DNA from: an uncultured delta proteobacterium
Lineage (GTDB): Bacteria > Desulfobacterota > Binatia > UBA9968
NCBI GenBank assembly: GCA_963767275.1
Contig: CAVYDL010000006.1
Location: 941,867-1,005,866 of the forward strand
Reading direction: 5' to 3'
DNA: 64,000 nucleotides
This document shows, piece by piece, positions 2,320-24,255 of this stretch; the first letter of the stretch is position 1, and every line of letters starts with the position of its first letter. Below the pieces are notes generated by a model. The model searched no databases. It had not been told where the DNA came from and worked only from the letters and a program-made list of their open reading frames with translations. The position numbers were made by a program, and so were the translations under genes.

Positions 2320-3710
2320 CACGGCGCCCTAACATCTTGCTTATCGTCCTGGATGCCACACGATTTGATTACCTGTCCGCTTACGGGTCTTCCAATACGA
2401 CTCCGAACCTCAACCGCTTGGCGCAAGACGGGATCCTCTTTGAAAGCGCTTTTGCCTCTGCGCCCTGGACCCCGCCATCCCATGCGTCCCTGTTCACGGG
2501 CAACTACCCATCGCGGCACGGGGTCGACGTTAACGAAAATCTTTACTTGAGCAAGGAGAATCGAACCGTAGCAGAAATTCTGTCCGAGAATGGATACCGG
2601 ACTTTCGGGGTGCTGCCCGATGCCCACCTGAGCAGTGATCGAGGATTCCATAAGGGATTCCAGGAATATATCGAGCTGTGGCGGATTCCTTACCTTTATC
2701 CGGAATACGACTGGAATGAGTGCTTGTTGCGGAACCTCCTCTTCGGACGTGACAAGCGGACATATTATACCAATCGGCTGATTCAGCGCTGGTTAAGAGC
2801 GAACTGGCGTGGCACCGACCCCTTTTTCATCTTCTTGAATTACAAGACGGCTCACAACCAGTATCAGCCCCCGCGCGCGTTCAGGCGCAGGTTTGAGAGC
2901 AGGCCCGGAGCGGGGGTGGACATGCGCAAGGTGAAGTTCTATTCCCGCGAGGGCGGTTATCCGTACATGGCTCGGCGTTTCGAGATGACAGATGATGAAT
3001 TGGCCATCCTGAAGTCGTGGTATGCGGGCGCCATCGCTTACATGGACTTCCGGCTCGGGGAACTGATCCAGTCTCTCAAAGAGGCCAGGGCGTATGAGAA
3101 TACGCTGATCATCGTCACGGCTGATCACGGCGAAAATTTTGGCGAGCACCATCTCGCGTATCACATGTTCTGCCTCTACGAGAGTCTTATCCACGTCCCC
3201 TTGATTATGAGCTGGCCGGCAGGCCTGCCTCACGGACGGCGCGTCCCGGGATTGGTATCCCTCACCGATGTGGTGCCGACTCTTGTAGAGCTGCTGCAGC
3301 TCGAAGGGGCAGGAGACGGTCTCCAGGGAACCAGCCTGGTGCCCTTTGATAGCCGGCAGTACCACGACCATGTGTTCGCTGAATTCGGCCGACCCCACTA
3401 CATGCTGAAGCGGCTGCAATCTCGGTTTCCGGGCGACGATTTCTCGCTGTTCGACAAAGGGCTTCGCTGCATCCGAACGGACCAGTTCAAGTTGATCATA
3501 GGGTCGGATGGGAGTGAGGAGTTTTACGATTTAGCGACCGATCCCGGGGAGATCTGCAATCTCTCCGGCAAGCAGTCAAACGTCGCCGCAGAGCTCCGCG
3601 ATAGCCTGGCTAACTGGAGCGGCTCGACGAAAAACTTTACCGCAGCGGCCAAAGAACCAGAAGAAAATGAGTCCGTAAGACGGTCCCTGGAGAAACTGGG
3701 ATATTTCTAA
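2316..3710 (+). CDS. Sulfatase-like protein of the alkaline-phosphatase superfamily. It carries a non-canonical active-site motif (T-P-P-S-H instead of C-x-P-x-R) and appears cytoplasmic (no signal peptide).
   Basis: N-terminus 'ILLIVLDATRFDY ... SAPWTPPSHASLFTG' matches the sulfatase signature region but has Thr and His where the FGly-forming Cys and the Arg normally sit. C-terminal 'TADHGENFGEHH' matches the metal-binding region. Confidence 0.75.
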   Translation: MTRRPNILLIVLDATRFDYLSAYGSSNTTPNLNRLAQDGILFESAFASAPWTPPSHASLFTGNYPSRHGVDVNENLYLSKENRTVAEILSENGYRTFGVLPDAHLSSDRGFHKGFQEYIELWRIPYLYPEYDWNECLLRNLLFGRDKRTYYTNRLIQRWLRANWRGTDPFFIFLNYKTAHNQYQPPRAFRRRFESRPGAGVDMRKVKFYSREGGYPYMARRFEMTDDELAILKSWYAGAIAYMDFRLGELIQSLKEARAYENTLIIVTADHGENFGEHHLAYHMFCLYESLIHVPLIMSWPAGLPHGRRVPGLVSLTDVVPTLVELLQLEGAGDGLQGTSLVPFDSRQYHDHVFAEFGRPHYMLKRLQSRFPGDDFSLFDKGLRCIRTDQFKLIIGSDGSEEFYDLATDPGEICNLSGKQSNVAAELRDSLANWSGSTKNFTAAAKEPEENESVRRSLEKLGYF

Positions 3711-4701: not shown

Positions 4702-4940
4702 TGCTAACGATGGAAGGAAGAAAGGTATCCGCGGGTAGTAATCCGGCTGCCGAGCTGACCGAGGAATGTGGCCGGCTTCGTTGCCGCTGTCGAGCGATTG
4801 ATCCGCGACCGAGACCCGGCCTTTAGCTGGGTCAGAACACTGGGTGCCCCAAACCTGTATGTTGGAGGAAAGCGTGATCGGAAGTCATCGGTGTCGAAGA
4901 GCAGAGGAATGGTAGGCAAAATAATTTAATCCTAGGAAGG

Positions 4941-5689
4941 ATGGAGATAACTATGTTTCAGAATCAGAAATGGACGAACTGTTTTCTTATCATCGCCGGC
5001 GCAATCTTGATAGGCCTGAGCTTCAATTCATCTGCCATTGCGCAAACCTGCGGTGGCACCGTTCCGTGCAAGTGCGGGGATAGCGTGATCGCCAGCCGAA
5101 CGATCCGGGGCGATCCGGTCGTCGGTGGTTTCTGTCCGGGCGACGGACTCATCATGGACACGCCCGGTGTAACCCTGACCCTCAAGGGGAATCTCTTTGG
5201 AAGTGCGGATCCGCACACCACGAGGGGCCCGGGCATCGGTATACACATCACCGCCGATAACGTTACTCTCCGAGGCGGAAGAGTCGAAGGTTTTCAGTAT
5301 GGGACCTACGGAACAACCAACGGTTCCTCGATTGGGGCGATCACTAACGATCACAATGCCGTGAGTTCGGTCCACATCACCGGCAACAACAACACGTTCA
5401 ATGGAACCGACGGCGCCCACGTGCTTGGCCCCAACGCTGGCGATGGGTTCGTCGTCATCGGGGACGACAACGACTTCATAGAAACCTTTACCGAGAAGAG
5501 TGCTCCCGGCCAAGTAGGGCTGCGAGTCATAGGCTCTGGTAATTTTTCCGAAAAAATTGGACAAATCAGGGCGAGGGCGGCGGGATCTGGGTAACAGGCG
5601 GGAACAACATTGATGGCGGCGGCAATAAAGCAAAAAACGTAAATGGGCAACCGATATGTGAGATCGACGGGATCCCCTGCAAAAAATAG
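4941..5689 (+). CDS. Secreted Cys-motif parallel beta-helix protein, copy 1. It is frameshifted at an A6 run (5552-5557); the frame-restored C-terminus ends '...GGGNKAKNVNGQPICEIDGIPCKK'.
   Basis: Signal peptide 'MFQNQKWTNCFLIIAGAILIGLSF', then 'AQTCGGTVPCKCGDSVIASRTIRGDPVVGGFCPGD', then ~22-aa PbH1-type repeats (GxxNxxxG). The +1 frame after 'gaaaaaatt' restores the conserved C-x-I-D-G-x-P-C C-terminus seen in copy 2. Confidence 0.7.
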
Positions 5690-5825
5690 CTGAGCTGTTA
5701 ACTGCGGAATAGTGAAAGAGGCGGCCGGCGCGCCATGGTCCGAGATCGCCTGGCTAAAGGCCAGAGTGAATTGACCACAAGCCATAAGATCTGACCGTAA
5801 AGGCAGGCAGTGAAAGGGAGGTAGT

Positions 5826-6575
5826 ATGTGGAGCAAGTGGATAAGCTATTTTGTTTTCAGCAGTGTTGTGATCCTCGCCGGTCTGGTTTTTCCCCTGCCG
5901 GCCCTGGCGCAAACCTGTGGCGGCACCGTTAAATGCAAGTGCGGCGACAGCGTGATAGCCAGCCGGACGATCCAGGGAGACCCGGTCGTTAAGAGTGTCT
6001 GTCCAGGCACCGCACTCTTCATGAGCACGCCCAACGTCACCTTGATCATCAAAAATGGCGGCCTCGTTGGGAGTCTGGATGTGCACTCGCAGTGGGCGAC
6101 CGGCGATGGCATAAACATTTCCGCGGATAACGTCACTGTCCGGAAGGGTAAAATCGAGGGTTTTCAGCATGGGATCTTTGGGATAACCAACGGCTCGACA
6201 ATCTCAGGGGTCACTACCGAGCACAATGCCGTGAACGGCATCAATATATCCGGCAACGGCAACACGATCGAAGCAAGCGCGGGCAGCCACAATACTAGCT
6301 CCTTGGCGCAAGACGGGATCCTGATCACTGGAGACGACAATGTCGTGACCGACAACTATGCAGAAAAGTCGGTCAGCGGCTTCGTAGGTATCAGGGTCGT
6401 GGGCTCTGGCAACTTTCTCCAGGATAACTTCACGAAATTAAATGATGGTGGTGGGGTCCAAGTCACCGGCGATGGCGTCATTGATGGTGACAACATCGAT
6501 GGTGGGGGTAACAAGGCGGGAAAGACCGCCGGGACGCCTAAATGCGAGATCGACGGAAACCCGTGCCTGCCTTGA
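5826..6575 (+). CDS. Secreted Cys-motif parallel beta-helix protein, copy 2 (intact)
   Basis: Signal peptide, then 'AQTCGGTVKCKCGDSVIASRTIQGDPVV...CPGT', beta-helix repeats, and C-terminal 'PKCEIDGNPCLP'. Confidence 0.8.
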   Translation: MWSKWISYFVFSSVVILAGLVFPLPALAQTCGGTVKCKCGDSVIASRTIQGDPVVKSVCPGTALFMSTPNVTLIIKNGGLVGSLDVHSQWATGDGINISADNVTVRKGKIEGFQHGIFGITNGSTISGVTTEHNAVNGINISGNGNTIEASAGSHNTSSLAQDGILITGDDNVVTDNYAEKSVSGFVGIRVVGSGNFLQDNFTKLNDGGGVQVTGDGVIDGDNIDGGGNKAGKTAGTPKCEIDGNPCLP

Positions 6576-6684
6576 GGATTGACCGTTACAGGTGGGACTA
6601 TGGAGCGGACTACGGCGACCTCGCGCAGATCGGAAGTGCCACGAGAGCTGTGACAGGTACCGCAATTTACCGAGAGGAGCAACC

Positions 6685-7680
6685 ATGTTTCAGAATCAGA
6701 AATGGACGAACTGTTTTCTGATCATCATCGGCGCAATCTTCATGGGCCTAGGGTTTTATTCGCCGATCCTAGCGCAAACCTGCGGCGGCAACATCCCATG
6801 TGAATGCGGGGATAATGTGGTGGCCAACCGGACATTGGTTTCCGGTCAAGATCCTATCGTAAGAGCCGTGTGCCCGGGCGATGGGCTAATTATGAACACC
6901 CCAGAAGTCGTCTTGAATCTCAACGGCAACAAAATCTTTGGTTCAGGTAGCGGTGTGGGTATTCTCATTGGCGACGGGGTTAATAACGTCACCATCGAGA
7001 ACACAGGCGGCGGGGGGGCGGGTCCTGATAACTTTGGCGTCGGCATCGCCACCGCTGGCCAGACCAGTGGCTCAAGAATTAGCGCGGTCAGGCCCCATGC
7101 GAACGGATTAGGGACAATACCACTAGGCGATGGGATATTCCTGAAGGGCGATGGGAACGTGTTGATTGGCATCCTGGCAAAAAACAACGGCAACAATGGA
7201 GTCACGGTGATCGGCGATGACAACGTACTCCAAGGTCACAACGATGAATACAATGGGGTCCATGGAATATTTGTGGAAGGTAATGGCAACCAGCTGAATG
7301 CCAATCTGGCAAGCGAGAATCGGAAGAAGTTTCAGGGCGCGGGGATATGGGTGGAGGGGGACGGCAATACGGTCGAACAAAGCAAGATCACCAAGATGAA
7401 CACCTGGGGGATCGTCATCCATGGCGATAACAACAGCTTGAGAAAGAACGATGTCACGAAGCAGGACATCGATGGGATAGTAGTGGTCGGCGATGGCAAC
7501 GTGCTGAAGGACAACAAGTCGCAGAGTTCCAAGGGCGTTGGCATTAGCGTTGAGGAGGATGACGGCGTCCCCAACTCCAACGCCGCCGCCAGTACGGGAA
7601 ATATTGTCAGCGGTAACCGGCAGGGGCCCCAGTGTAGCATCTACGGGGTCACGACGACGCCGACCTGCATCCAGAAATAA
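6685..7680 (+). CDS. Secreted Cys-motif parallel beta-helix protein, copy 3. It is longer (331 aa) and has a Gly-rich insert.
   Basis: Its first 35 nt are identical to copy 1 (atgtttcagaatcagaaatggacgaactgttttct). It has 'AQTCGGNIPCECGDNVVANRTL...CPGD', many GDGN/GNGN beta-helix rungs, and C-terminal 'PQCSIYGVTTTPTCIQK'. RBS GAGAGGAG precedes the start. Confidence 0.8.
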   Translation: MFQNQKWTNCFLIIIGAIFMGLGFYSPILAQTCGGNIPCECGDNVVANRTLVSGQDPIVRAVCPGDGLIMNTPEVVLNLNGNKIFGSGSGVGILIGDGVNNVTIENTGGGGAGPDNFGVGIATAGQTSGSRISAVRPHANGLGTIPLGDGIFLKGDGNVLIGILAKNNGNNGVTVIGDDNVLQGHNDEYNGVHGIFVEGNGNQLNANLASENRKKFQGAGIWVEGDGNTVEQSKITKMNTWGIVIHGDNNSLRKNDVTKQDIDGIVVVGDGNVLKDNKSQSSKGVGISVEEDDGVPNSNAAASTGNIVSGNRQGPQCSIYGVTTTPTCIQK

Positions 7681-7761: not shown

Positions 7762-8976
7762 ATGAGTACGGGTAAGCTGACAGTTGCGGCCTACAGCCAT
7801 TTCGGCGCCAGAGGCTTGAAAGGGGTCGAGACGTACTACCTCGTGCAAGAGGCCTGGAGGAGAGGATATTTAGAAAAGGTGATTGCCGTATCGAAAAAGC
7901 GTTGCCGTTTTGAGTTCGACCTCGCCCTTGTCGACACGCTTCCGGGAGAGTCACGGCTTATTTCCGGGCTGGTCCAGATCAAGGAAAAAGCCTGGCAGGC
8001 GTTCCCATCGAGGTGGTTCGGCGAGATGATTTTTGACCGCTATGCGGCTTCAAGGCTGAAGCGCTCAGGCGGCACCCTGATCCTGACCCCAGGAATGATC
8101 CACACAGCGCGGAAAGCTAAAGACCTCGGGTATACGATCTTACTGTACGGTGCCACTCCTGACCCTAGATATCTTATGGAGCAGATCCAGACCGAACGGG
8201 CGGCCCTCGGCTTTAAAGGCGGGGAAGATGATAAAGATCGCTCGCGGATGGTGGCACGCTGGACGGCTAGCTTGGCGTTAACAGACCACCTCCTCGCCGT
8301 CTCGGAGTTTTCCAGGGACACCTACGTCAAGTACGGTTTTCCGCTGGAAAGAGTATCGGTCGCTCCTCTTGGGGTCGCTCTGCAACGGTTCCCGCTAACA
8401 GCCCCTCCCACGGATAGCTGTTTCACCTACCTCTTCGTTGGTCACGTGAATGGAACAACGGGAATCGTGAAAGGGTTGCAATATCTCTTGCCGGCCTGGT
8501 GTGAGCTTAAATTGAAAAACGCTAGGTTGCTGGTCTGCGGAAAGATGGGCGCCGAGGGACGGGAAGTGATTCGGAGATATGACGGAAGGCTGCACAATGT
8601 CGAGTTCACTGGGCAAGTTAGTGACCCGGCGGAGTATTATCGCAAAGCGGCGGTGTTTGTCTTGCCATCGGTTGCCGAAGGGATGGCCAAGGTAACAATC
8701 GAGGCTATGGCCACCGGACGACCTGTCATTGTCACCCCAAACTGCGGAGCCGTGGCGCGCGATGGCGTTGATGGTTTCTATGTCCCAGCGCGAGATGTGG
8801 AGGCCTTGAAGGAGAGAATGCTCTATTTCTACAACCATCGCGAAGAGATCGCGAGGATGGGCGCCAACGCCAGTGAATGGGCCCAGAGGTTTACCTGGGA
8901 GAGATTTAGTCGGCAGATCGCTGATGTCATCGTGGGACCTCCACTCTGCAATAAGGTAGAGGTCGAGAAACGATGA
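7762..8976 (+). CDS. GT4 family glycosyltransferase. It is a paralog of the gene at 35680-36930.
   Basis: 'EGMAKVTIEAMATGRPVIVTPNCGAVARDGVDGFYVP' is a GT4 C-domain. Its N-terminus 'AAYSHFGARGLKGVETYYLVQEAWRRGYLEKVIAVSK' is near-identical to the 35680 gene. Confidence 0.85.
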   Translation: MSTGKLTVAAYSHFGARGLKGVETYYLVQEAWRRGYLEKVIAVSKKRCRFEFDLALVDTLPGESRLISGLVQIKEKAWQAFPSRWFGEMIFDRYAASRLKRSGGTLILTPGMIHTARKAKDLGYTILLYGATPDPRYLMEQIQTERAALGFKGGEDDKDRSRMVARWTASLALTDHLLAVSEFSRDTYVKYGFPLERVSVAPLGVALQRFPLTAPPTDSCFTYLFVGHVNGTTGIVKGLQYLLPAWCELKLKNARLLVCGKMGAEGREVIRRYDGRLHNVEFTGQVSDPAEYYRKAAVFVLPSVAEGMAKVTIEAMATGRPVIVTPNCGAVARDGVDGFYVPARDVEALKERMLYFYNHREEIARMGANASEWAQRFTWERFSRQIADVIVGPPLCNKVEVEKR

Positions 8977-10538
8977 AATCGGTCCGGGGGAAGATCGCTA
9001 AGGCAGCCGGCCTGCTTCTGGTGTTGCAAGTCTTTGAGCAGGCCACCGGCCTGATGAAACAGATGGTGATCGCCGCTCAGTTCGGAACTTCGGAAACGAT
9101 GGACGGCTATCTGATAGCGACGACCATTGTCGGGCTTATTCTTCTCTGGGTCGGCCTGCCGATCCGCCAGACTCTGATCCCCATGTTCCGCCACGATCTC
9201 GCGAAGCGGGGTGAACGAGCGGCTTGGGCCAATGCCAGCGTTCTCTTCAATAACCTACTGCTGGTTCTTATCGGTATCGTTCTCTTGGGGACACTAATAG
9301 CTCCTTACCTGGTGAGCATCCTGGCTCCCGGTTTCGATGAGAGCGCGCTGTCCTTGGCCACTTCTTTGGCCCGGATCACGATGGCCAGTGTGGTCTTTGT
9401 CGGTATGGGAAACGTGTTGTCCCAGATATTCTTTTCTTACGAAAGGTTCTTCCAGCCCGGCATCGCGGGCAGCGTGAATAACGTCGTGACGATGTTGGCA
9501 CTGCTCGCTTTAGGTGGCACGTACGGCATCTATGGTCTGGCCGTCGCCGTCGTGATAGGCGGCGGTTTTCACTTCGTGCTTCAGCTGCCGATTCTGTGGG
9601 AGAAGCGGAAATTTTATTCTGCCACGGTGAACTTTCGCCATCCGCACATGGTCGAGACCGGCAAGCTGAGCTTGCCGCTGCTGATTTCCACTGGCGGTAA
9701 CGAGTTGGCGAGAGTTACCGATCGGATCTTTGCCTCGCTCTTGGCTGCCGGAAGCCTCTCGGCCCTTGCGTTTGCCCATAGGCCAATCACGGTCCTGATC
9801 GAATTTCTAATCCACCCGCTTAATACAGCGACTTTGCCTCACTTCGCCAAGCTCAGTGCCGAGGGAGATTTTCGCACGCTGTCCCGCCAGCTCTTTTACT
9901 ATGTTCGTCTTATTGCTTTCTTTACGCTTCCCATCGCCGTCGGCCTCATGCTGCTGGCGGAGGACGCCGTCAGAACGCTCTATGGACGGGGGGCCTTTGA
10001 TGAAGCCTCGGTCCGCTTAACCGGTCAGGCGCTGTTCTTCTATGCGATCGGAGTGCCGGCCCAGGCGATAATGAGAATCTTCAGAAATGCTTTTTTTAAT
10101 CTGAAAGATACCTGGACGCCGACAAAAATAGCCCTTGGTCGTATCGCGCTCAAAATCATTCTCTCTTGGATTCTGGTCCAACCGATGGCCCATCGGGGTA
10201 TCGCCTTGGCCGAGTCTCTCTCGCTGATTGCCAACGCCTTCTTTCTCTTCTGCTTTCTGCCAAGGGAACTGAAGGGCAAAGAGGGATGGAAGACTCTGGC
10301 GGCGTTCGGGCAGACTCTGGCAGGCTGCGTCGTCATGGGAACCGTGGTGTACTTCGCGCAGGAGAAGCTAAACGGAATGATCAGTCTACCGCTGGAGCTC
10401 GTTACCTTGGTCATGCTGGGCGCAGCGACTTATGGCGCTACCGCGCTCCTCTTCCAGGCGGAGGTGAGCCACTCGATCCTAAAGACGGTGACGGAGTTGG
10501 GCGGAAAATACCTCAGAGGAGCTGCCAAAACAACATGA
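8973..10538 (+). CDS. MurJ/MviN-family lipid-linked oligosaccharide flippase (MOP superfamily)
   Basis: 521 aa and polytopic. The N-terminal pattern 'GLMKQMVIAAQFGTSETMDGYLIATTI' fits the MurJ N-terminal consensus (G..R....A..fG.s...DAf..A). Its start overlaps the GT4 stop (ATGA). Confidence 0.75.
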   Translation: MKSVRGKIAKAAGLLLVLQVFEQATGLMKQMVIAAQFGTSETMDGYLIATTIVGLILLWVGLPIRQTLIPMFRHDLAKRGERAAWANASVLFNNLLLVLIGIVLLGTLIAPYLVSILAPGFDESALSLATSLARITMASVVFVGMGNVLSQIFFSYERFFQPGIAGSVNNVVTMLALLALGGTYGIYGLAVAVVIGGGFHFVLQLPILWEKRKFYSATVNFRHPHMVETGKLSLPLLISTGGNELARVTDRIFASLLAAGSLSALAFAHRPITVLIEFLIHPLNTATLPHFAKLSAEGDFRTLSRQLFYYVRLIAFFTLPIAVGLMLLAEDAVRTLYGRGAFDEASVRLTGQALFFYAIGVPAQAIMRIFRNAFFNLKDTWTPTKIALGRIALKIILSWILVQPMAHRGIALAESLSLIANAFFLFCFLPRELKGKEGWKTLAAFGQTLAGCVVMGTVVYFAQEKLNGMISLPLELVTLVMLGAATYGATALLFQAEVSHSILKTVTELGGKYLRGAAKTT

Positions 10539-11349
10539 TGCATACAACACTTCCGATCCAGACGCTGGTGCCTCAGCTCGTTACCCTCGCTCACCGAGCG
10601 GGCGAAGCAGTCATGAAGTTTTATTCTCAAGACGAGTTGGGGACAACTTATAAAGAATTTGACTCGCCGCTGACCTGCGCGGACATCGCGTCCCATGATT
10701 TGATTGTGGAACAACTGCAAGCGCTGACTCCAACCGTGCCGGTATTGTCAGAAGAGTCCAAGGCGGTCCCCTATCAAGTGCGACAGGCATGGCGGACATT
10801 CTGGCTAGTAGACCCACTGGATGGGACCAAAGAATTCATCAAACGCAATGGCGAATTTACCGTTAACATCGCGCTCATCGAGGACGGGCGGCCGGTTTTT
10901 GGTGTCGTGCATGCTCCAGCCATGGAGGTGACTTATCTTGGCCGCTCACGGAATCGGCGCGTTCAAGCAAACCGCTCAGGAGTCAAAACGGATTCCAATC
11001 GCCGTCAGGCAATGCGAGAGCACGAGGCTTAAGGTAGTCGTCGAGCCGTTCACATGCGGGCGATGAGCTCGAAAGATTTCTCGATAAGATCGCGCCTGCT
11101 GGAGTGCTCAGTATCGGTAGCTCGCTAAAAATCTGTCTGGTCGCGGAGGGCGAAGCGCATCTTTACCCACGCCTCGGGCCAACCATGGAGTGGGACACCG
11201 CTGCCGCCCAGTGCGTCGTTGAAATGGCGGGCGGGGCGATCGCCGATCTGGCGAGGGCAAACTCTGAGTATACAATAAGCCCGATTTGGCACAATCCCCA
11301 CTTCATCGTCAGCGGCACTCCCGACCTTTCCCTGGCAGAGTTATTTTGA
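10535..11349 (+). pseudogene. cysQ: 3'(2'),5'-bisphosphate nucleotidase CysQ (PAP phosphatase, inositol-monophosphatase fold), disrupted by two frameshifts
   Basis: 'WLVDPLDGTKEF' is the IMPase motif. The reading continues in a second frame ('LAAHGIGAFKQTAQESKRIPIAVRQCESTRLKVVV') and then a third ('SRSHAGDELERFLDKIAPAGVLSIGSSLKICLVAEGEAHLYPRLGPTMEWDTAAAQCVV'). Confidence 0.7.
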
Positions 11350-11483
11350 GAACAGGGAGTGTGCCGCTGGACGGTGATAAACATGGTGTTGTGATCGCGC
11401 TGTTCAAGGATGCGAGACGATGAAATCAGTATATCAACCCTAAACTACTCCGCACTTGCAGAAGCGTCCATGCGGCTTACCGA

Positions 11484-12283
11484 ATGGCGACTGCGCCGCT
11501 CCGGGTCATGCCGGATTTCCTCTTTATCGGCGGCAACCGATGCGGCACGCCGACGCTCTATGAATACCTGTGCGGCCATCCATGCTTCGCGCCGTCGGTG
11601 CGAAGCGAGAAGTGCATGTATTTCGATCTGCACTTCGCAAAAGGCGTGAACTGGTACAAAGGCATTTTCCGTCGGTCGGATTACAAATACTCCGTCACAC
11701 AATTACAGCAGGAAGAAGTTTTTACCGGAGAGGCAACGACCTATTACATATTTCACCCCATGCCCCCCGGCAGAATCTAGCAAACGTGCCGAAGATCAAG
11801 CTCATCCGCTCTTGCGCAATCCCGTCGACCGCGCCTACGCGCAGTATCATCAGAAAGTCAGGAGAGGTAACGAGCCGCTCTCATTTGAAGACGCGATAGA
11901 CGCGGAGCCTGAGAGACTGCAAGGCGAGAGGGAAAAAATGCTGGCCAATGAACCCTATAACAGCTTCAACTACCGTCGACTATTCCTATCTCACCAGGGG
12001 CGTCTATGTGGATCAGACTCGCGCACTGGATGAATCTGTTCCCAAAGAACAGCTGCTGGTCATGTGCAGCGAAGACTTGCGCAGGGAGCCGAGCCGGGTT
12101 TTGCAAGAGGTTCTACAGTTCCTCGAGCTGCCGGCGTGGGAGCCGCAGGCGCAGAACAATTATGGTCAAGCCGAGTATCCGAAGATGGATGCTGCCGTGC
12201 GGGCACGTCTCATCGAATACTTCCAACCGCACAACCGGCGTTTACATGATTTCTTAGGTCGGGATTTCGGCTGGGACCGGTGA
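11484..12283 (+). pseudogene. Sulfotransferase (subtype A), split over three frames. It is a paralog of the intact gene at 13237-14151.
   Basis: 5'-PSB 'PDFLFIGGNRCGTPTL' and 3'-PB 'RNPVDRAYAQY' lie in different frames. One shift is at a C6 run (11763-11768), another is near 11807-11812, and a third is near 11950-12030. The order of pieces matches the intact paralog. Confidence 0.7.
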
Positions 12284-12352
12284 TCCATGGAGCGCGCAGT
12301 GGCTCACCGCAGTGCTCCTCAGTATAGGGATGATTCAACAGGAGTTACAAGA

Positions 12353-13227
12353 ATGAGGCGACCGGATTTTTTCATCGTCGGCGCACCCAAGTGCGGCACG
12401 ACCGCAATGATCGATTACCTGAAACAACACCCGGAGGTCTTCGTCCCGGACCGCAAAGAGCTTGACTTCTTTGGCAGGGACCTTGTGTTTAAAGGCCATC
12501 GACTCACCGAAGAAGAGTATCTGGATTTTTTTTCGCGGGCGACGGCGGAAAAGCGCGCCGGCGAAGGCTCGGTATGGTATCTGCACTCAAAAACCGCGGC
12601 ATTAGAGATCAAGGATTTTTCCCCGGCGCGCGGATCATAATCATGCTGCGCAATCCTCTCGACATGATGTATTCATTCCATAGCCAGCGTCTTTATAACG
12701 GCAACGAGGATATCGAAAATTTTTCAGCGGCATTGGATGCCGAGGCCGAGCGCAGACGAGGATTGCGCCTGCCCAAGGGCGCGTCGGATGTTTTCGGTTG
12801 GTGTTACCGCGACGTGGCGACTTATACCAAACAGGTCCAAAGATACTTTAACACCTTCGGCAAGGAACATGTTCGCGTCATTATTTACGACGATTTCGCC
12901 AAGGATGCCGGCCTCGCGTATCGAGAAACCTGCCAATTCCTCGATATAGACTCGGACTTTCAACCGGATCTCCGGATCATCAACACCAGGAAGCAGGTAC
13001 GAAGCAAAGCGTTGCGAGAATTCCTGCGACGCCCGCATCCTGCTTCGGGCTGGCTTTTTCGAGCGATAGGACTCCGCCCGGATCGCAACGGGGGATACAA
13101 AGGCTGGCTCAGGCGGTTAAACAGTAGTGACAATTCCCTTCGCCCGATGAATCCGGTATTGAGAAAACAACTGCAACGGGAATTTGCTCCTGAAGTCCGG
13201 CAGCTAAGCGCATTTACTCGGACGTGA
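12353..13227 (+). CDS. Sulfotransferase (subtype B), with a single frameshift near 12620-12635 in a GCGCGCG tract
   Basis: 'RRPDFFIVGAPKCGTTAM' is the PAPS 5'-phosphosulfate loop; '...IIIMLRNPLDMMYS' is the 3'-PB. It is collinear with the intact paralog at 38159-39052. An AGGAG RBS precedes the start. Confidence 0.7.
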
Positions 13228-13236
13228 TTTGAGCCA

Positions 13237-14151
13237 TTGGTGCAAGTCATGAATCGACTCATTGATCCGAAGCCACTGCCGCCTTTTCTGAAGCGGCTAG
13301 TCAAGGCTCCTCGGGCGCTGACGGCCAGAGTCCGACTCCTGCCGGATTTTCTCATCATCGGGGCGCAGCGGTGCGGCACCACTTCTCTGCAAAGGTATTT
13401 AATACAACACCCCTCGATAGCGCCTGCGTTCAGGAAAGAGGTGCATTATTTCGACAAGAATCTGAAGAAGGGGGTGACCTGGTACCGGACGCATTTCCCG
13501 TCAGCGCCCTACAAGTACTTCGTAACCAAAGTCCTCCGTCGGCGGTTTTTGACGGGTGAGGCGAGCGCCGCGTATCTTTTCTATCCGCATGCGCCGAAAA
13601 AGATCCTTGAAACGGTGCCCCGCGCCAAGCTGATCGTTCTGCTACGGAACCCGGTGGATAGGGCGTACTCTCATTACCAGCACGAAGTGAGCTTAGAGCA
13701 TGAAACTTTGCCGTTTGACGAGGCGATCGAGCAGGAGCAGGAACGACTTCGTGGCGAGAGAGAGAAAATGCTCGCCGATCAAAGCTATGACAGTTACAAG
13801 TACCGACACTATTCTTACCTGTCGAGGGGCGCATACGCCGACCAGCTGGCAATCTGGATGAAATTCTTTCCCAGAGATCAGATGCTCATTTTGCGGAGCG
13901 AGGATTTCTTTGCCGAACCGCCCAAGATCTTTCAGAAGGTTCTACGGTTCCTCGATCTGCCCCTATGCGAGCTCGGCGAGTATAAGCAATACAATGCGCG
14001 GGACTACTCAACCATGGATGCGGCAACCAGAGCTCGGTTAATTAAGTACTTCGAACCGCATAATCGCCGCTTACGGCAACTGGTTGGTCGAAAGTTTCGC
14101 CTGGAACCAATAAGCCCCACGCGCTATGAAGTTTGCCATTCGCGACGATGA
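13237..14151 (+). CDS. Sulfotransferase (subtype A), intact
   Basis: 'LPDFLIIGAQRCGTTSL' and 'LLRNPVDRAYSHYQH' are the PAPS-binding motifs. Confidence 0.8.
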   Translation: MVQVMNRLIDPKPLPPFLKRLVKAPRALTARVRLLPDFLIIGAQRCGTTSLQRYLIQHPSIAPAFRKEVHYFDKNLKKGVTWYRTHFPSAPYKYFVTKVLRRRFLTGEASAAYLFYPHAPKKILETVPRAKLIVLLRNPVDRAYSHYQHEVSLEHETLPFDEAIEQEQERLRGEREKMLADQSYDSYKYRHYSYLSRGAYADQLAIWMKFFPRDQMLILRSEDFFAEPPKIFQKVLRFLDLPLCELGEYKQYNARDYSTMDAATRARLIKYFEPHNRRLRQLVGRKFRLEPISPTRYEVCHSRR

Positions 14152-14950
14152 CACGTCGTTCTTCACCCGACCCGAGCAATTGCTGCGCGTGTATGAGGGT
14201 ATCTGGGATAGGGTGCCGGTCTCTCTGTCCGTCGTGCCTTTTCATGGCCGCACCCACACCGAAGGCATCCCGGTTGAGTATTGGTCCGGCGGGAATGAAT
14301 TATACCCGGTGGCCGATAACAGTGATTTGATCGCATTCTTACGGGAGCAAACCGCGAAGAATCGAGTATCGATCATGATGCACGGTTACAGCCACGTCGA
14401 CGAGCCGGATGGCTACGAGTTTGAAACCGCAGCCGATTTGGAGCGCAAGGCGCGCGAGGGTAAACGCTATTTGGAAGAGGTGTTTCGAGTACCGATCCAT
14501 GCGTTCGTCCCGCCCCATAACGCGCTCTCGGCCGCCGGCTACCTAGCGGTGATACGCGCCGGTTTGGATATCGTCCAGATCGTTCGTTTCGGGCATGGCG
14601 TTCGGCCAATCGCGCTGCGTTATTTTTCCCAGCTGGCCCGTTTGGTCTGGTCGAAGTTCAAGTGGAAGCATCCATATCCTTACTATCCTCAAGTGCTCGA
14701 TTTTGGTGGACATCGCGAAGTTGCGTACCACTCGCTTACGCCTTCGGTTACTTTCCAAAAGCGCTTAGACGAGCTGGAATTTTGTCACCGGCGTGGCGGT
14801 GTGTTTGTGCTCGCCACCCACTATTGGGAGCTTGAGCGAAAAACAAAAGACGGGCTGACTTTGCGCCATGCGCTCGAGCGTCTGGTCGACCGTGCGGCTC
14901 AACTCGGTGCGCAGTTTTGTTCTGTGAATCAGGTACTGGGGCGAGAATAG
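14126..14950 (+). CDS. DUF2334 / polysaccharide-deacetylase-like protein
   Basis: N-terminus 'MKFAIRDDDTSFFT' and 'MMHGYSHVDE' are typical of the DUF2334 deacetylase-like fold. There is a paralog at 25444-26238. Confidence 0.6.
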   Translation: MKFAIRDDDTSFFTRPEQLLRVYEGIWDRVPVSLSVVPFHGRTHTEGIPVEYWSGGNELYPVADNSDLIAFLREQTAKNRVSIMMHGYSHVDEPDGYEFETAADLERKAREGKRYLEEVFRVPIHAFVPPHNALSAAGYLAVIRAGLDIVQIVRFGHGVRPIALRYFSQLARLVWSKFKWKHPYPYYPQVLDFGGHREVAYHSLTPSVTFQKRLDELEFCHRRGGVFVLATHYWELERKTKDGLTLRHALERLVDRAAQLGAQFCSVNQVLGRE

Positions 14951-14959
14951 GATGTCCGA

Positions 14960-16230
14960 TCAAAGGTATGGTGTCGCGTTGCCCAGCCGGTTCCAGTTGA
15001 TTCTATGATTTTTTCTCGGATTTTCTGCAAGACGCCAACGTCCAAAGACCGGTCGCGGTCTCGTGCGTTGAGAAAATCTCAGTGGAATTTCACGGGCACA
15101 CCGGCAACAGATCGCGGAGAGATATTTCTGGTCGATCGCGTCGAGCGGCCGCACGCCCGCGCCCGCTAATATCGCACGAGCCGCCGTGCAAGCCTCCTGG
15201 GTATCGACCGGGGGAGCCGGGAAAGGACTCATTTCGTTGCCGACTTTATTGATGTCCTGTTCAAGCTTGTCGGCGCTGTAATTCCCACTGGTATACACCT
15301 TGGCCACAGCGGCTGATTTTTCTCCGCTGCCCTGCATTGCGCCGACGACCAGCGCCTGTTTTTGGTTCTTGGGGAAACTCCGGGGAGAGGAATAAAAGTT
15401 GTTTATGACATTGGCCTTTGAGCCGGACCAGATCAACGTCCCGTATCCGCCGGCCCAGTCCCACACCAGGTTGTTTCTCATATCGAGAGTCGTGTCGGTG
15501 GCGGCCGTCCCGTTGTTGTCGATGGCGACTTGCGGGTTTCTCTGCTGCGCGTTGCACGAAGATGTTGTGATGCAGGCTGATCCGCGAGGGATTATATTTG
15601 ATCAGCATATTTTTCTGAGTTGCGCGAGGTTCCGCGAAGATACTCCAGGATACGGTCACGTCGCGTGAATCGGTTCCGATGTCCAGATTGCCGTCTTCCG
15701 AGCCGTGAATCGAAACGTGATCGATCACGACATTGTATGCGCCTTTGACAACGTTCATGCCGTCGGTTTGTTCTTTGTCGCCTGTTGATCCCAGCATCGC
15801 GCACCCGCATGCCTCGCACGATAATATCGTGGGCTCCGCGTTTTCCACTAATGCTGAGGCCATAGTTCTTGAGCGTAATGCCGGGAGCCGGCGCAGTAAA
15901 CCCATCAATGGTTATGAAAGCACCCCTGATGTAGTACGGTCTTGGTGAGAACAATCTCTCCCGCTACATCGAAGACGACCGTCCGATTCCCTGAGACACG
16001 GCATCACGAAAGCTACCCGGCCCTGAGTCGTTGAGGTTGGCAACGCGGACGATGGCTTTACCAGATCCTCCCGGCGTCTTCGCTCCAAAACCCTGATATG
16101 CCGGATCGGCAGCTTTCGCCCCGGCCGGCGATGAAGGGATCGGGATGAGTTCCCTGGGTTTCCACACCGACAGAAGTCGCCAGCACAAGGGCGCAACTCG
16201 CAAGCAGCTAAAAGCGTCGCATCCAGCCCA
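14960..16230 (-). pseudogene. Pectate-lyase-family-1-like polysaccharide lyase, decayed into at least four frame segments. It is a paralog of the genes at 41722 and 39608.
   Basis: The minus-strand pieces 'AYQGFGAKTPGGSGKAIVRVANLNDSGPGSFRDAVS', 'GAFITIDGFTAPAPGITL...AHDIIVRGMRVR', 'VVIDHVSIHGSEDGNLDIG...ISLHHNIF' and 'RNNLVWDWAGGYG...NFYSS' are collinear with the 41722 protein but lie in different frames. Confidence 0.65.
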
Positions 16231-16305
16231 TTTTTGGCTGCTGAAATTGAAAATTTGCATCGTGAACCTCTAGATATCTATAAATCTACCTCGGGAGATT
16301 TTGCA

Positions 16306-17801
16306 ATGAACTCAATGAGTCAGGTGAAAATCATCGCTACGATCGGTCCAGGCAGCAACACCGCGGCGGCGCTCACGTGCCCTGCTAGAAGCCGGAGCCA
16401 ACGTGGCTCGTCTCAACGGCTCGCACGCCGACTTGGAGTGGCATGCCGCCACGATCAAATTGCTGCGCAAGGTGGTGCCGCAGATGCCGATCCTGCTCGA
16501 TATCCCCGGACGCAAGATCCGCACCGGAGCTTTGGAGCACGAGCCCTGCTTCCAAGCGGGTGATTTTCTGGTGCTGACTACGTCTGCCGATCACAACGGC
16601 CATTTTAAGGTGCCGGTATCGTATCCGAACCTGCACGAAGACCTCTCACCGGGGGACACAATCCTGGCTGACGATGGCCAGTTGCGGTTCACCGTCGAAT
16701 CGGTGGTGGATCGGGATATCGTCTGCAGAGCGGAGGCGGCTGGAACCCTGCGCAGCAGAAAGGGCATCAACTGCCCGGGCGTCACACTTGCGCACGGCGA
16801 TGGTGACGGAACGGGACCGGAGCATGCTGGCCTTCGCCAAAGAACACGGCGTTGATTTTGTCGGCATCAGTTTCGTCGAAAGCGCGGATCACGTCAATGC
16901 GATTCGCGCTGTGATCGATGACGCGAGCCCTCGAATTGTCGCCAAGATCGAAACTCCGGATGCGCTGGAACACTTGGCAGATATCATCGCCGTGTCCGAC
17001 GCGATCATGATCGATCGCGGCGACTTGGCCGTTGAAACCAATCTTTATGGTATCGCGCTGTTGCAAAAGCAGATACTGACCGCTGCCCGCCAGGCCAACA
17101 AGCCGGCTATCGTCGCCACCGAGATGCTGCATTCCATGATAGCGAGCCCGGTGCCGACAAAAGCCGAAGTGACCGACATAACCAATGCCGTCCTCGACGG
17201 CGCCGCGGCGGTGATGCTTTCAGGCGAAACAGCCGTCGGTCAGTTCCCCGCTGCAGCCGTGGCGACGATGCGTCAGATAGCCGACAGAGCTTCGGCCCAT
17301 TTACAATCGACGTTGGACCAGAATGGCAGCCGGGAAGAGTTCAGCGTGCCGCAAGCGGTAGGGGATGCGATCGCTCTCATATGCCGGCGCCTGCCCGTGA
17401 CCAAGATCGTCGCGATTACGATCGCCGGCTACGCCGCGCGCACGGTGGCCATGCACATGCCGCGTCAACCTATCCTCGCCGTCAGCAATGATCCCATCGC
17501 CGCTCGCAGTTTTCACATGCTGCCCGGAACGGAAGGCATCTACGTGGATATTCCGTTCGTGCGAACCAGCACCGACCATATTCCCAAATGCTTGGAGGAA
17601 TTATGGCGGAGCGGAAAATTACTGGACGAGGATCTCGTGTTGGTGACGTCGGTCGGATACCCGAGGTCGGGCAATCGGATGAACCTGATTCAAACGCATA
17701 ACATTGCCGATCTGCGGGAGAGCCTGGGATGGCTATCGATGCCGCAGGGCTCGGTCGGTCCGGGCCTCACCATGATGGCGGCTCCTGCGGACCCGATATG
17801 A
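16306..17801 (+). CDS. pyk: Pyruvate kinase, with two apparent frameshifts (~16370 at a CCC run, ~16800)
   Basis: 'KIIATIGPGSNTAAAL' continues in the next frame as 'LLEAGANVARLNGSHADLEWH', and then as 'MLAFAKEHGVDFVGISFVESADHV...IVAKIETPDALEHL...MIDRGDLAVE'. These are classic PK motifs. Confidence 0.7.
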
Positions 17802-17903
17802 CCGCCGGCCATGGGCTGATAACTTTGGGTCGTCGGCAATTATGATCAATAGCGAAATTACCACAACGATTTCATACAATGATGAAAACATCTGGGTGCA
17901 ACA

Positions 17904-19219
17904 ATGAGAATATTAACCGCCATCAAGTCGGTGACGAGTAAAATAGCGCTGGTTGTCCTTTCCATCGCCATAACCCTCGTGCTGCTGGAGTTTGCTGTCC
18001 GCCTGTTTTCCCCACAGCCGCTCAACCATTACAATTTCACGCTGATTCAAGCAGAGGGCGGCGGCGAGGTGGTTTTAAGGTCAGTCAAATCGGCTGGCTG
18101 GAAAAGCACGAGAGGCTATGGCCCCTACGTTCCCAACCTGTCGACGAATTTTGGCGGGGTCCCGGTGACCATCAATTCGCGCGGTTGGAGAGACGGCGAG
18201 TATTCTTTGAAAAAGCCCGCGGGCGTTCGCAGAATCATGGTCGTCGGAGATTCGGTCACCTTTGGTTATGGAGTCAAGCTTGAGGAAATGTTCGCGAAAT
18301 TGCTCGAACGAGGATTGAACAGCCGAGGGCCGGGACGTTACGAGGTCATCAGCTTGGGCGGGGCCGGCGGCAATACCTATTCTCAAAGTCGGATAATTAA
18401 AGAAAATGTGGCGATTTATGATCCTGACCTGGTGATTCTCGCTTTCAACTTAAACGACATTTTGCCGAAAATCTTTGGCAGACGAAATGCGACGTACACC
18501 GCGTGTCGGCCGTTCAATTTCACGGACCGTCCTTCGATCTGCGAAGGACACTGGACACAGAGTTCCGGGGGCGCTCGCACCTCTTTTTTCTACTTAGGGA
18601 GAGAATGAAAGTCTTGCTGCGAAAGTTCGGCATCGCTGGCGCCGATCAGGGGTTCCGCTGGCGGCATTTGACATGGAAAGCGATTCTGGCCGCGCCGCTT
18701 GGCAGGATACCAGCGGGGCGTTGCTTGAAATCGCCGATCAATTAAATCGCGACAAGGTCAAGTTCTTGCTCGCCGTTCTGCCGGTGGATATGCAGTTGAG
18801 TCCCGAGATCGCGGATATCTACCGACGTGAATACGGATTTGTTTTCGACAATAGCCTGGTCAATGGCCTGCCGCAGAAGAGTAGTAGCCGATTTTGCCCG
18901 GGGCCACGGCATCGCTTACATCGATCTGCTTCCGTCGTTTCGAAAGGATCCGCACGAGCAGACATTTTTTCGCATTTACGGTGGGTCGGTCGATTGGAAC
19001 CACCCAAACCGTTTGGGCCACAAGATCATCGGCGAGCAATTAATGAACGCCGTTCACTCTCTCTGTGCCGATGATACCGGCCTCAATGGTAAAGCCGATC
19101 GAAAATCCTATCCGGACAGACAAAAACAAAGAGAGCGCGCCGTAGCCGTACCGATCTTGGAGTATGACGCGGGGCCTTCGATAGACAGTGTTCCTAAGTC
19201 GCCAAATCAGGGGCTGTGA
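17904..19219 (+). pseudogene. SGNH/GDSL-family hydrolase (candidate polysaccharide O-acetyl esterase/transferase) with an N-terminal TM anchor, split over at least three frames
   Basis: Block I 'IMVVGDSVTFGYG' (GDSL). The C-terminal catalytic 'DWNHPNRLGHKIIGEQL' (DxxH) is found in a different frame (18827 ORF). The intervening piece is in a third frame. Confidence 0.55.
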
Positions 19220-19525
19220 TGGTTGAATGATTAACGAGCAGACACATTTGAATATCGCTGTTGTGGGAACGGGTAATGTGGTCTTGTCACCGGGATGTGT
19301 CTTGCCGAGTTCGGCATGAATGTCATCTGTGCGGACAAGGAAAAACAGAGGAGCTCGCAGTTACCCAAAGTGGAAAATCCGATTGATGAGCCGCGATTCG
19401 CCCGAGCTGCTCCAGCGCAACCTTCAACAAGGACGGTTCACTGCACGACCGACACGGAATATGCGTTAAACAGTCAGTCAAAGCTTGCGGATTCGAATAC
19501 TACGGCTTCGTTCGGGGCTGATACC

Positions 19526-20726
19526 ATGGTCAAGATAAAAGATAGGATACTCCATGTCATCACCGAGTCCGGACCCTACGGCGGTGCCCAGCGCAACACC
19601 TTTCTTACTGTGAAGGGACTGATCGAGGATGGCTATGATGCTGAGCTGATCTGCGGAGCGGGAGGACCACTGATTCAAGAGGCGAGGGCGGCCGGCGTTC
19701 CGGTTTACGTGATGGCGGATCTGGTTCGCCCGGTGCATCCAGTAAAAGATTGCCGCGCGCTGGTCCAATTGTATCGGCTGTTCCGATCCAGGCGCTATCA
19801 CATCGTCCACACCCATTCGGTCAAGGCGGGACTGCTGGGCCGACTGGCTGCTTGGTGCGCGCGGGTTCCTGTGATTATTCACACGCTCCATGGCGTTCCC
19901 TTCCGGATAACCGGAGACTTCAAGTCGCGATTCTACATCGTTTACGAGCGACTCTTGGGCCTCATCACACGCTGTTTTGTTTGTGTCGGCGAGGTTCTTC
20001 GCCAAGAGATATCGGCCTGGAAGATAGCGCCGGAGAAAAAGCTAACGACGATCTACAGCGGCATCGATTTTACTTCGTATGTGCCCCAATACACGGCTCT
20101 GGATACGAAGCAAAAGCTCGGTGTGGAACGGGCATGGCCGATCGTTGGCTGCATCGGCCGCCTTTCTGAGCAGAAAGCGCAACACTACCTCGTTGAAGCC
20201 GTATCATTTTTGACGGACAAATATCCGCACATCAAATTACTGCTTGTGGGCGAAGGCGGGCTGCGCTCCTTTTTGGAAAAACAAATCCGCGACCTTGGCC
20301 TCTCATCGAATGTTTCGCTGCTTGGGGAGCGCGACGACATCGCCGATCTTCTTAATGTTTTCGATGTTTACGCGATGTCGTCCCGTTGGGAAGGCGTCGG
20401 GCGGGCTTTGACGGAAGCGATGCACATGGGACTCCCGGTCGTAGCGACCTCGGTCGACGGGGTAACAGAACTCATCTCTGATGAAAAAACCGGACTGCTC
20501 GTTCCGACCGCAGAATCCTCGGTCATTGGCCGCCGCCATCGATCGGCTGTCTGTGGACCGCGAGCTGGCAAAACGCTTGGGATCAAGCGCGCGCCAGAGA
20601 GTGAAAGAGCTCATGGACGGTCAGCAGATGGTCCGTGCCATCGAGGAACTCTACCAGAAACTAACCGAGCGGCGTATAGATGAGAGCCCGCTCTGTCCGA
20701 GCTTGACATCAGATCAAGCAAAGTGA
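19526..20726 (+). CDS. GT4 family glycosyltransferase, with a C-terminal frameshift near 20515-20530
   Basis: 'ILHVITESGPYGGAQRN' (N-domain) and 'EAMHMGLPVVATSVDGVTELISDEKTGLLVP' (C-domain). The C-terminal tail 'LAAAIDRLSVDRELAKRLGSSARQRVKEL' continues in the ORF at 20481-20726. Confidence 0.7.
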
Positions 20727-21161: not shown

Positions 21162-21184
21162 TAGCTTTAAAGAAAGTAACGCTT

Positions 21185-22940: not shown

Positions 22941-23146
22941 TGCCGGGTTTTTCAACCCTGAGGCTGGTGGCCGCGATGATCCGCGATCATGAGAGCATGC
23001 GCATCGATTACAGCCGCAATATTTGGTGCCTCCTGGTCTTCATGCTCTGGCATGACGAGTATGTACGGCATCCACGGGTTGCCGCATGCCAAGAACAAAT
23101 GGCTCTATAGCTTGGTAAATTTTATTTTGCGTCTTGAGGTGTGGTC

Positions 23147-24242: not shown

Positions 24243-24255
24243 CGCGGATAGCACT

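Follow-up and report, generated by a model that had tools for sequence, protein, structure and literature searches.

Chemical analyses find sulfated extracellular polymers in soils, microbial mats and granular sludge, but few of the bacteria and enzymes that make them are known (PMC10483923; PMC7356697). Among genetic models, cyanobacterial synechan has been studied best; its xss cluster is thought to have as many sulfotransferases (STs) as there are sulfate groups in each repeat (PMC8205485). Chemical evidence of sulfated exopolysaccharide (EPS) is also available for Pontiella and for granular sludge (PMC7356697; PMC10483923), and in chemical terms such EPS is widespread (PMC10483923). Here we analyzed a 64,000-nt stretch of contig CAVYDL010000006.1 from an uncultured Binatia-type bacterium (hereafter “the window”; all coordinates are positions within it), which is part of a surface or extracellular polysaccharide biosynthesis locus of at least 60 kb carrying several ST genes together with genes for making and recycling the sulfate donor 3′-phosphoadenosine-5′-phosphosulfate (PAPS). 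A literature search pairing Binatia or Binatota with sulfotransferases found no link. We consider it likely that the window holds a conserved Binatia polysaccharide locus with a self-contained sulfation module, and that the many frame breaks in the sequence as given are mostly assembly error. Such a locus adds concrete candidate genes for the sulfated EPS of soils.

A tblastn search of the window with the three intact ST proteins returned exactly six ST-like regions and no more. They comprise five ST genes (labeled A1, B1, A2, C, and B2) and one dead remnant (Table 1; L and P numbers denote loci and proteins of relatives). After ortholog-guided frame repair, A1 and A2 share 53% identity and B1 and B2 57%, while cross-group pairs share 28–37%. 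These values, with the Pfam matches, bear out a first-pass annotation of this DNA, which had counted six ST genes or remnants of three subtypes. That annotation had also placed the genes at or near the positions found here, though the limits of CysQ, A1, B1, A2, and the remnant had to be redrawn. Against a gathering cut-off of 22 bits for the Pfam ST models (PF00685 and PF13469), A2 scores 81.7, C 68.2, and B2 60.4 bits on PF00685, and the frame-repaired A1 and B1 score 73.8 and 53.6. Three of the genes are intact or nearly so: A2 is 95.5% identical to P0001, C is 69% identical to its L110 ortholog with no frameshift, and B2, likewise free of frameshifts, is 95% identical to P0121 and 74% identical to the Binatia ortholog P0124. 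The B1 stop overlaps the A2 start (ATGA), and A2 probably does not begin at the TTG at 13237. At the other end of A2, a +1 insertion at ~14092–14094, missing from L001 and L004, rewrites the last residues and lengthens the reading frame to 14151. No transmembrane segment or signal peptide was found in the STs, so these enzymes would act in the cytoplasm.

As judged from sequence searches and a predicted fold, all three subtypes are closest to the heparan-sulfate (HS) 3-O- and N-sulfotransferases and keep both the PAPS-binding loops and the catalytic glutamate. In phmmer searches of the PDB, the structure 3RNL came first for subtypes A, B, and C alike (E values from 2e-36, for B2, to 2e-21, for C), followed by HS 3-OST-1/3/5 and the ST domain of NDST1 (A, 2e-19; C, 4e-15 to 3-OST-1; B, 6e-9). 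An AlphaFold (AF2) model of subtype A (pLDDT 90.7) gave Foldseek TM-scores of 0.64–0.77 to 3RNL, 3-OST-1/3/5, and NDST1, and of ~0.4 to other ST classes. Two other kinships were considered and set aside: at E ≤ 0.01, PDB sequence searches returned no Stf0 match for any subtype, and weak matches to cytosolic SULTs for subtype C alone.

The motifs fit this placement, though less uniformly than first described. The 5′-phosphosulfate-binding (PSB) loop, which the first-pass annotation gave as xGxxKxGTT-like throughout, is present in all subtypes, but its Lys occurs only in B (GAPKCGTT), with Arg in A (GxxRCGT(T/P)) and C (GAMRSGTS); Arg at this place of the loop is a recognized alternative, known from NodH and Stf0 (PMC11625862). 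Similarly, the 3′-phosphate-binding (PB) motif RNPxDR, also ascribed to all six, holds for A1 and A2, whereas the B proteins read RNP(L/V)D(M/V)MYS, C reads RNPVHRAYS with His replacing Asp, and the remnant lacks the motif. The wider pattern RxxxDxxxS is complete in A2 (RNPVDRAYS), B1, and B2. Across 27 subtype A homologs, G38, G43, and T44 of the PSB loop, E104, and R133-N-P-x-D137-R138 are invariant. In HMMER alignments to 3-OST-1 and 3-OST-5, a conserved Glu (within GEAS in A, GE(G/A) in B, and GEIT in C) falls on the Glu of the 3-OST motif E-K-[ST]-P-x-Y. According to a review of these enzymes, Glu serves as catalytic base in both HS3ST1 and NST1, and Lys or Arg in the PSB loop and Ser in the PB motif help to define the class (PMC11625862). 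The concern, voiced with the first-pass annotation, that these proteins might have lost their catalytic base is thus answered by alignments in which the Glu is kept and so, apart from the PB variants of A1 and C, are the PAPS-binding residues, and by a subtype A model that fits HS 3-OST and NDST.

The PAPS-generating sat-cysC fusion, CysQ, and a TauE/SafE permease lie in the same locus, as had been annotated, and Pfam and profile scores uphold all three assignments. Sat-CysC contains both catalytic domains and scores 839.8 bits on NF004040 (cut-off 669). On TIGR01331 (cut-off 228.8), the frame-repaired CysQ scores 316.5 bits and the intact L004 ortholog 310.6. The permease, which always adjoins Sat-CysC in relatives, is presumed to carry a sulfur oxyanion. 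Around these genes Pfam finds about eight family 4 glycosyltransferases (GT4), a MurJ/MOP flippase, a Bac_transf priming enzyme, two DUF2334 deacetylase-like proteins, two epimerases, and a UDP-glucose dehydrogenase (UGDH), as well as the previously noted NodU-type carbamoyltransferase, two AsnB-type amidotransferases, and two methyltransferases (MTs). Several secreted pectate-lyase/beta-helix proteins are also encoded in the window. The STs are thus embedded among glycosyltransferases, a priming transferase, and a flippase, in an order kept in relatives, and the flippase stop and CysQ start overlap by 4 nt at a MurJ–CysQ junction that relatives share.

From this gene content a sulfation pathway can be proposed. 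The TSUP permease and Sat-CysC would convert sulfate to PAPS, from which five soluble cytoplasmic STs (A1, B1, A2, C, and B2) would each sulfate a different position of a lipid-linked repeat unit or nascent glycan, with the conserved Glu acting as base and the PSB-loop Lys or Arg stabilizing the transition state. CysQ would hydrolyze the inhibitory by-product 3′-phosphoadenosine-5′-phosphate (PAP), and the MurJ-like flippase, translationally coupled to CysQ, would then flip the decorated unit, with carbamoyl, amide, and methyl groups supplied by the remaining tailoring enzymes. These genes make it reasonable to infer an exopolysaccharide product bearing sulfate, carbamoyl, amide, and methyl groups.

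The closest proteins come from Candidatus Binatia metagenome-assembled genomes (MAGs), and one of these, GCA_050735675.1 (L002, L110), keeps the same gene order over >40 kb. Its order begins with sulfatase-like, MT, GT4, MurJ, (ST, beta-helix), CysQ, ST, ST, ST, DUF2334, pectate-lyase-like (on the minus strand), pyruvate kinase, and UGDH. It continues with GT4, VanZ, AsnB, MT, GT4, DUF2334, ST-C, Bac_transf, sulfatase-like, Na/H exchanger, and GT4, and closes with ST-B2, DUF6798, orf480, and BACON-lyase, followed further on by epimerase, GT4, and carbamoyltransferase. A Microflora-Danica-type MAG contig (L004) is colinear with window positions 1349–23892 at 92% nucleotide identity, and an ENA contig (L114) is colinear with 49132–64000 at 96.5% overall and 99.1% in parts. 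Individual junctions and genes persist as well: the first DUF2334 gene directly follows A2 in all relatives compared, the Bac_transf gene is kept in L110 and L112, and the best tblastn segment of the carbamoyltransferase is 100% identical at the amino acid level to its L114 ortholog. At the right-hand side, the order YdjM–SatCysC–TauE is kept in L114, L115, and L116, and the module (in part with UGDH) stands at the locus edge in three genomes, with unrelated genes beyond.

Table 1. Features of the polysaccharide locus, with supporting evidence and the number of frame-breaking indels counted by alignment to orthologs of relatives.
Feature	Position	Strand	Evidence and remarks	Frame-breaking indels
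MurJ/MOP-family flippase (Wzx-like)	8973–10538	+	Pfam MurJ 8e-72, Polysacc_synt_3; no indels versus L004	
CysQ, 3′(2′),5′-bisphosphate nucleotidase (PAP phosphatase)	10535–11377	+	Pfam Inositol_P 7e-31 and 2e-12 on two pieces	6, all +1 insertions
ST A1	11410–12283	+	Repaired protein PF00685 2e-20	13–14, of 1–2 nt, in the sequence as given
ST B1	12353–13252	+	1-nt deletion at ~12621–12625, +1 at 13213	2
ST A2	13249–14113	+	PF00685 7e-23; essentially intact	1, at the C-terminus
DUF2334 (polysaccharide-deacetylase-like)	14126–14950	+	Pfam DUF2334 9e-12; ends the CysQ–ST block	
Pectate-lyase-like	15246–16260	−		7
Pyruvate kinase	16255–17801			2
AsnB	21185–23110			3
ST C	26288–27154	+	PF00685 1e-18; intact; downstream of second DUF2334 gene	0
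Priming phosphoglycosyl transferase (Bac_transf) fused to multi-transmembrane region	28358–30298	+	Pfam Bac_transf 3e-52; 12 hydrophobic segments	0
ST B2	38159–39052	+	PF00685 2e-16, PF13469 1e-15; intact	0
B2-type ST remnant, genuine pseudogene	43524–43899	+	blastn versus B2, frameshift-aware alignment	
NodU/CmcH-type carbamoyltransferase	50976–52754	+	Pfam Carbam_trans_N 1.5e-40, Carbam_trans_C 7e-62	
orf457	57075–58446			2
Sat-CysC (sulfate adenylyltransferase/APS kinase, PAPS synthase)	59191–60966	+	PUA_2, ATP-sulfurylase, APS_kinase	0
TauE/SafE (TSUP) permease	61221–62012	+	Pfam PF01925 TauE 2e-34; 6 hydrophobic segments	
orf443				4
GT4b				1
GT4c				2
orf373				1
AsnB2				1
LamG-VanZ				4

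In the sequence as given, ~70 frame-breaking indels, mostly of 1 nt, interrupt at least 15 genes at 10940–25410, 32085, ~48380, and 54385–58417. The split genes include pyruvate kinase, both amidotransferases, three GT4, the pectate-lyase-like gene, LamG-VanZ, and orf457, and zero breaks occur in ST-C, ST-B2, Bac_transf, Sat-CysC, and many further genes (counts in Table 1 are from frameshift-aware alignment of the window to the orthologs of relatives). The GT4 at 47683–49024 probably carries one more frameshift, judging solely by two overlapping half-domain reading frames; an L110 GT4 was rejected as a reference for it because it is not orthologous. Of the STs, B1 had been credited with one frameshift and proves to have two breaks, near 12621 and at 13213, the latter insertion being missing from the short-read contig L001. 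Its pieces 12353–12640 and 12574–13227 nonetheless match PF00685/PF13469, and the repaired protein is 97% identical to the L004 ortholog, with 0 stops. A1 likewise matches PF00685 unrepaired in one piece (11948–12283) and aligns over its full length with the intact ortholog P0051 (290 aa) at 85% identity and 0 stops; its indels are also visible in a DNA alignment to L004. CysQ, split by +1 insertions at 10943, 11043, 11254, 11270, 11289, and 11326, aligns to the L004 ortholog at 89% identity with 0 stops, and is unbroken in relatives (277–280 aa).

The locus also offers a gene that has undoubtedly decayed, against which these breaks can be compared. The region near 43559–43835, called a remnant in the first-pass annotation, is indeed a dead B2-type ST: it keeps ~35 nt from before the start codon, the first ~40 codons, and approximately the last 70 (blastn versus B2: 43524–43677, 79% over 155 nt; 43682–43809, 77% over 128 nt, from codon ~226 onward). 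It has a 556-nt internal deletion, at which the B2 coordinate jumps from 38277 to 38834, in-frame stop codons (43703, 43832), and a slip in a T-run that shifts the frame at 43846. Only the 5′-PSB loop is retained; the catalytic Glu and 3′-PB motif fall in the deleted part. Every sign of neutral decay sought in A1, B1, and CysQ is present here. In L110 (10001–16074), intact B2 directly adjoins the DUF6798 gene, with PelZ-like orf480 and BACON-lyase downstream, whereas in the window the remnant adjoins DUF6798, intact B2 lies 5 kb upstream, and the two secreted lyase-like genes stand between B2 and the remnant (39587–43899). Because the neighbor of DUF6798 is intact B2 in the one and the remnant in the other, the remnant reads as the scar of a rearrangement or duplication between B2 and the DUF6798 gene.

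Are the remaining breaks decay of the same kind? Genuine pseudogenization on the left side of the locus (affecting CysQ, A1, B1, pyruvate kinase, AsnB, GT4s, the pectate-lyase-like gene, and others), in an organism that is losing or remodeling its sulfated glycan and keeping only A2, C, and B2, would account for reading frames that are objectively broken in the given sequence. The locus does hold the one undoubted remnant, genes in glycan loci are known to turn over often, and divergence from L114 is mosaic (0.9% to 11%). The form of the breaks speaks otherwise. In bacteria, natural indels are biased toward deletion and gather in homopolymers, yet among the 52 one-nucleotide coding indels here insertions outnumber deletions by 35 to 17, 33 (63%) have no identical flanking base, just two lie within runs of ≥4, and inserted bases differ from both neighbors in 71% of cases against a random expectation of 56%; intergenic indels versus relatives, by comparison, show a natural, broad range of sizes (2, 5, 6, 7, 10, 11, and 39 nt). 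A1 has kept its length within 1 nt after 13–14 events, with no large deletions, and at most one in-frame stop is found across all frame-corrected genes, whose repaired proteins are 83–97% identical to their orthologs (P ≤ 0.008 for the eight genes modeled, 9.5 kb and 38 indels, if there were at least five substitutions per indel). The signs of a pseudogene are thus missing from A1, B1, and CysQ, which after repair have 0 stops, indels of 1–2 nt that are more often insertions and mostly outside homopolymers, and profile scores that are kept—in the case of CysQ, above that of the intact ortholog. Pyruvate kinase and AsnB are broken too and still carry a signature of purifying selection: the third-codon-position excess is kept in pyruvate kinase (0.77), B1 (0.77), AsnB (0.71), and GT4b (within 0.71–0.77), resembling unbroken neighbors, although at 1–3 indels per gene this test cannot tell very recent decay from error. 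Moreover, MurJ, CysQ (277 aa), A1 (290), B1 (299), A2 (287), and DUF2334 are all unbroken in a 96%-identical short-read JGI contig, as is the whole run MurJ–CysQ–A1–B1–A2–DUF2334–PecLy–PK in short-read contigs of relatives (also L035 and L002/L003). Long-read L004, on the other hand, has frameshifts of its own at 8890 (A1) and 10516 (A2), missing from the window and from L001, and AsnB is split in L115 (1848–3717), a long-read MAG contig of the same clade. Some observations sit less comfortably with error. The breaks are clustered and not uniform, with 24 indels in 10.94–12.13 kb, none in genes across the compared 1.3–10.9 kb, and one in 25.5–48.3 kb, and that same CysQ-3′/A1 segment is 11.3% divergent in a codon-position-blind manner (third-position fraction 0.49, within 0.49–0.57). 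Its raised divergence fits the noise of a strain-mixed or low-depth consensus, and would also fit genuine relaxed selection; the transition/transversion ratio in indel-dense segments (0.81, versus about 1.3–1.4 elsewhere) discriminates weakly and receives little weight. Error is argued here from relatives and the indel spectrum, as assembled letters alone cannot prove it. On balance, we find decay of the left half distinctly unlikely and hold with reasonable confidence that the breaks in CysQ, A1, B1, and about a dozen other genes are residual single-base indel error of a long-read assembly; the first-pass wording “decayed,” “frameshifted,” and “broken” for these three genes is then probably not biological. 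If they are artefacts, the organism would have five functional STs and an intact CysQ. More generally, clustered 1-nt frameshifts in long-read MAGs can mimic gene decay, so pseudogene calls need short-read relatives and an indel spectrum.

Even with all five STs intact, the acceptor could be something other than a secreted EPS, i.e., a small molecule or another glycoconjugate: a cell-bound polymer resembling O-antigen or capsule, a glycan on protein or S-layer, or a glycolipid of the kind sulfated by NodH, Stf0, and KpsS. Characterized bacterial carbohydrate STs act mostly on lipo-oligosaccharides, glycolipids, and capsules (PMC8205485; PMC11625862), and a MurJ-family flippase with a large Bac_transf enzyme is equally typical of O-antigen and capsule pathways. 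Export genes point the same way: no Wzy, Wzz, or Poly_export Pfam match and no Wza/Wzc-type (OPX/PCP) export protein was found in the window, where the only candidates for Wzy are two multi-transmembrane proteins that match no Wzy family, orf410 and the DUF6798 protein (8 hydrophobic segments each), although export genes may lie outside it. Against the reading as a whole also stands A1, whose 3′-PB motif (RNPVDRAYA) has Ser replaced by Ala, also in the intact ortholog P0051, and a “sulfatase” gene of the locus, having no formylglycine motif, lends no support to sulfate turnover; we infer polymer sulfation, the order of steps, and the acceptors of individual STs from the genes. Yet the placement of the STs among about eight GT4, a priming transferase, and a flippase, in an order kept across Binatia, points to a lipid-linked oligosaccharide acceptor, their fold is nearest to that of polysaccharide (HS) STs with Stf0 not among the PDB sequence matches, and the secreted pectate-lyase/beta-helix proteins suggest that the polymer is extracellular and undergoes trimming there. 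We therefore regard another acceptor as rather unlikely and prefer an EPS sulfated by this module. A more specific version can be offered tentatively, as a possibility somewhat short of an even one: that members of the Binatia, an uncultured class abundant in soils, make a glycosaminoglycan-like polysaccharide, sulfated at multiple positions, carbamoylated, and amidated, from a conserved ~60-kb locus with five HS-type STs, each with its own position, and its own PAPS cycle (TSUP permease, Sat-CysC, and CysQ). If true, no multi-sulfated EPS pathway outside cyanobacteria would have been delineated genetically before this one, and the locus would offer a source of bacterial HS-like regiospecific sulfotransferases.

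Other features of the window deserve mention in their own right. The “sulfatase” at 2316–3710 (PF00884 and SGSH_C) occupies the same place in Binatia relatives. A role for it in sulfate turnover was considered and set aside, since T-P-P-S-H replaces the formylglycine motif C/S-x-P-x-R and a signal peptide is missing, so the protein is probably not a sulfatase. The replacement points to Thr as the nucleophile, the residue that serves phosphotransferases within the alkaline-phosphatase superfamily. The formylglycine motif is likewise missing from a second sulfatase-like gene (30576–31553). The pyruvate kinase gene, inside a polysaccharide locus, is found in the same place in all relatives examined (L002, L004, and L035). 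A ~2-kb segment (4702–6675), which encodes two small secreted proteins (4941–5594 and 5826–6575), is missing from the 92%-identical L004. The leader MFQNQKWTNCFLII is common to orf217 and the adjoining orf362 (6592–7680), and the N-terminal motif AQTCGGTV(P/K)CKC to orf217 and orf249; these are probably duplicated beta-helix proteins. Divergence from L114 varies along the right-hand part of the locus, from 0.9% over 49.1–54.3 kb and 2.2% over 59.2–63.7 kb to 4.5% in LamG-VanZ and 11% in orf457, a mosaic that points to recombination, or to hypervariable cassettes, within the locus.

How unusual is such a locus? The first-pass annotation had called sulfated bacterial EPS systems rare, which is fair for characterized systems but not for the genes, as 39,908 clusters at 50% identity match subtype A at E ≤ 1e-3, a number that falls to 21,536 at E ≤ 1e-10 and to 2,868 at E ≤ 1e-30, and loci combining STs with PAPS enzymes occur in other phyla. 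STs lie together with a PAPS enzyme or CysQ in Paenibacillus sp. yr247, on a Gemmatimonadota contig, and on a Bacteroidetes contig. In the cultured Paenibacillus (L007, 9091–15069), three tandem STs—Sulfotransfer_2-like, Sulfotransfer_1 (48% identical to subtype A), and Sulfotransfer_2-like—are followed by a PHP-domain protein (possibly a PAP phosphatase), an APS kinase, and a GT4. This analogous toolkit belongs to an organism that can be grown, a possible proxy for experiments. The Bacteroidetes bacterium SZAS-60 contig JAFDYS010000023.1 (L013, 20.6 kb) has six ST-like regions, a CysQ homolog (45%), and a GT4 within ~20 kb; thus, loci with multiple STs and CysQ are not confined to Binatia. 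As a group, soluble bacterial STs of this kind could be mined for enzymatic glycan sulfation.

At the level of single enzymes, the nearest structure is 3RNL from Alicyclobacillus acidocaldarius, a structural-genomics entry that aligns over nearly its full length, including a C-terminal helix common to B and C, but is itself functionally uncharacterized and so of no help with the substrate. The animal HS 3-OSTs and the NDST N-sulfotransferase domain (3UAN, 1T8T, 3BD9, and 1NST) have in common with the Binatia proteins the PSB loop, the RxxxDxxxS 3′-PB helix, and the Glu base in E-x-[ST]-x-x-Y. Identity to them is 24–28%, however, and the Binatia proteins are soluble with no Golgi membrane anchor, have Arg for the PSB Lys in A and C, and need not act on a glucosamine-containing polymer. 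The rhizobial NodH and KpsS and the mycobacterial Stf0 are also PAPS-dependent carbohydrate STs, and NodH and Stf0 have the Arg-type PSB loop (RxG) seen in A and C, but these enzymes act on lipo-chitooligosaccharide, capsule, or trehalose and their genomic context differs from that of the Binatia locus.

At the level of gene clusters, non-cyanobacterial PF13469/PF00685 STs in GT2/GT4-rich surroundings have been described in a cluster of Pontiella sulfatireligans F21 that putatively makes a sulfated glycosaminoglycan (PMC7356697) and in ST searches on granular-sludge EPS (PMC10483923). The Pontiella cluster has one ST and no reported PAPS-cycle genes, whereas the Binatia locus, a gene-level description at present, is larger and has more STs. 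The likeness to the synechan xss cluster of Synechocystis sp. PCC 6803 (PMC8205485) is one of gene content: both are Wzx-type clusters with glycosyltransferases interspersed with more than one PAPS-dependent ST of distinct subfamilies (PF00685/PF13469). In xss the polymer has been experimentally linked to the cluster, which in the Binatia case is represented by its genes, and regulators of the XssQ/R/S type were not seen in the window. Conversely, the cyanobacterial cluster has two STs where the Binatia locus has five and a remnant, and the CysQ, Sat-CysC, and TSUP permease of the latter are not listed for xss. With five STs and a full PAPS cycle, the Binatia locus is well equipped but not categorically new, and it takes its place among the ST-bearing polysaccharide clusters already known.

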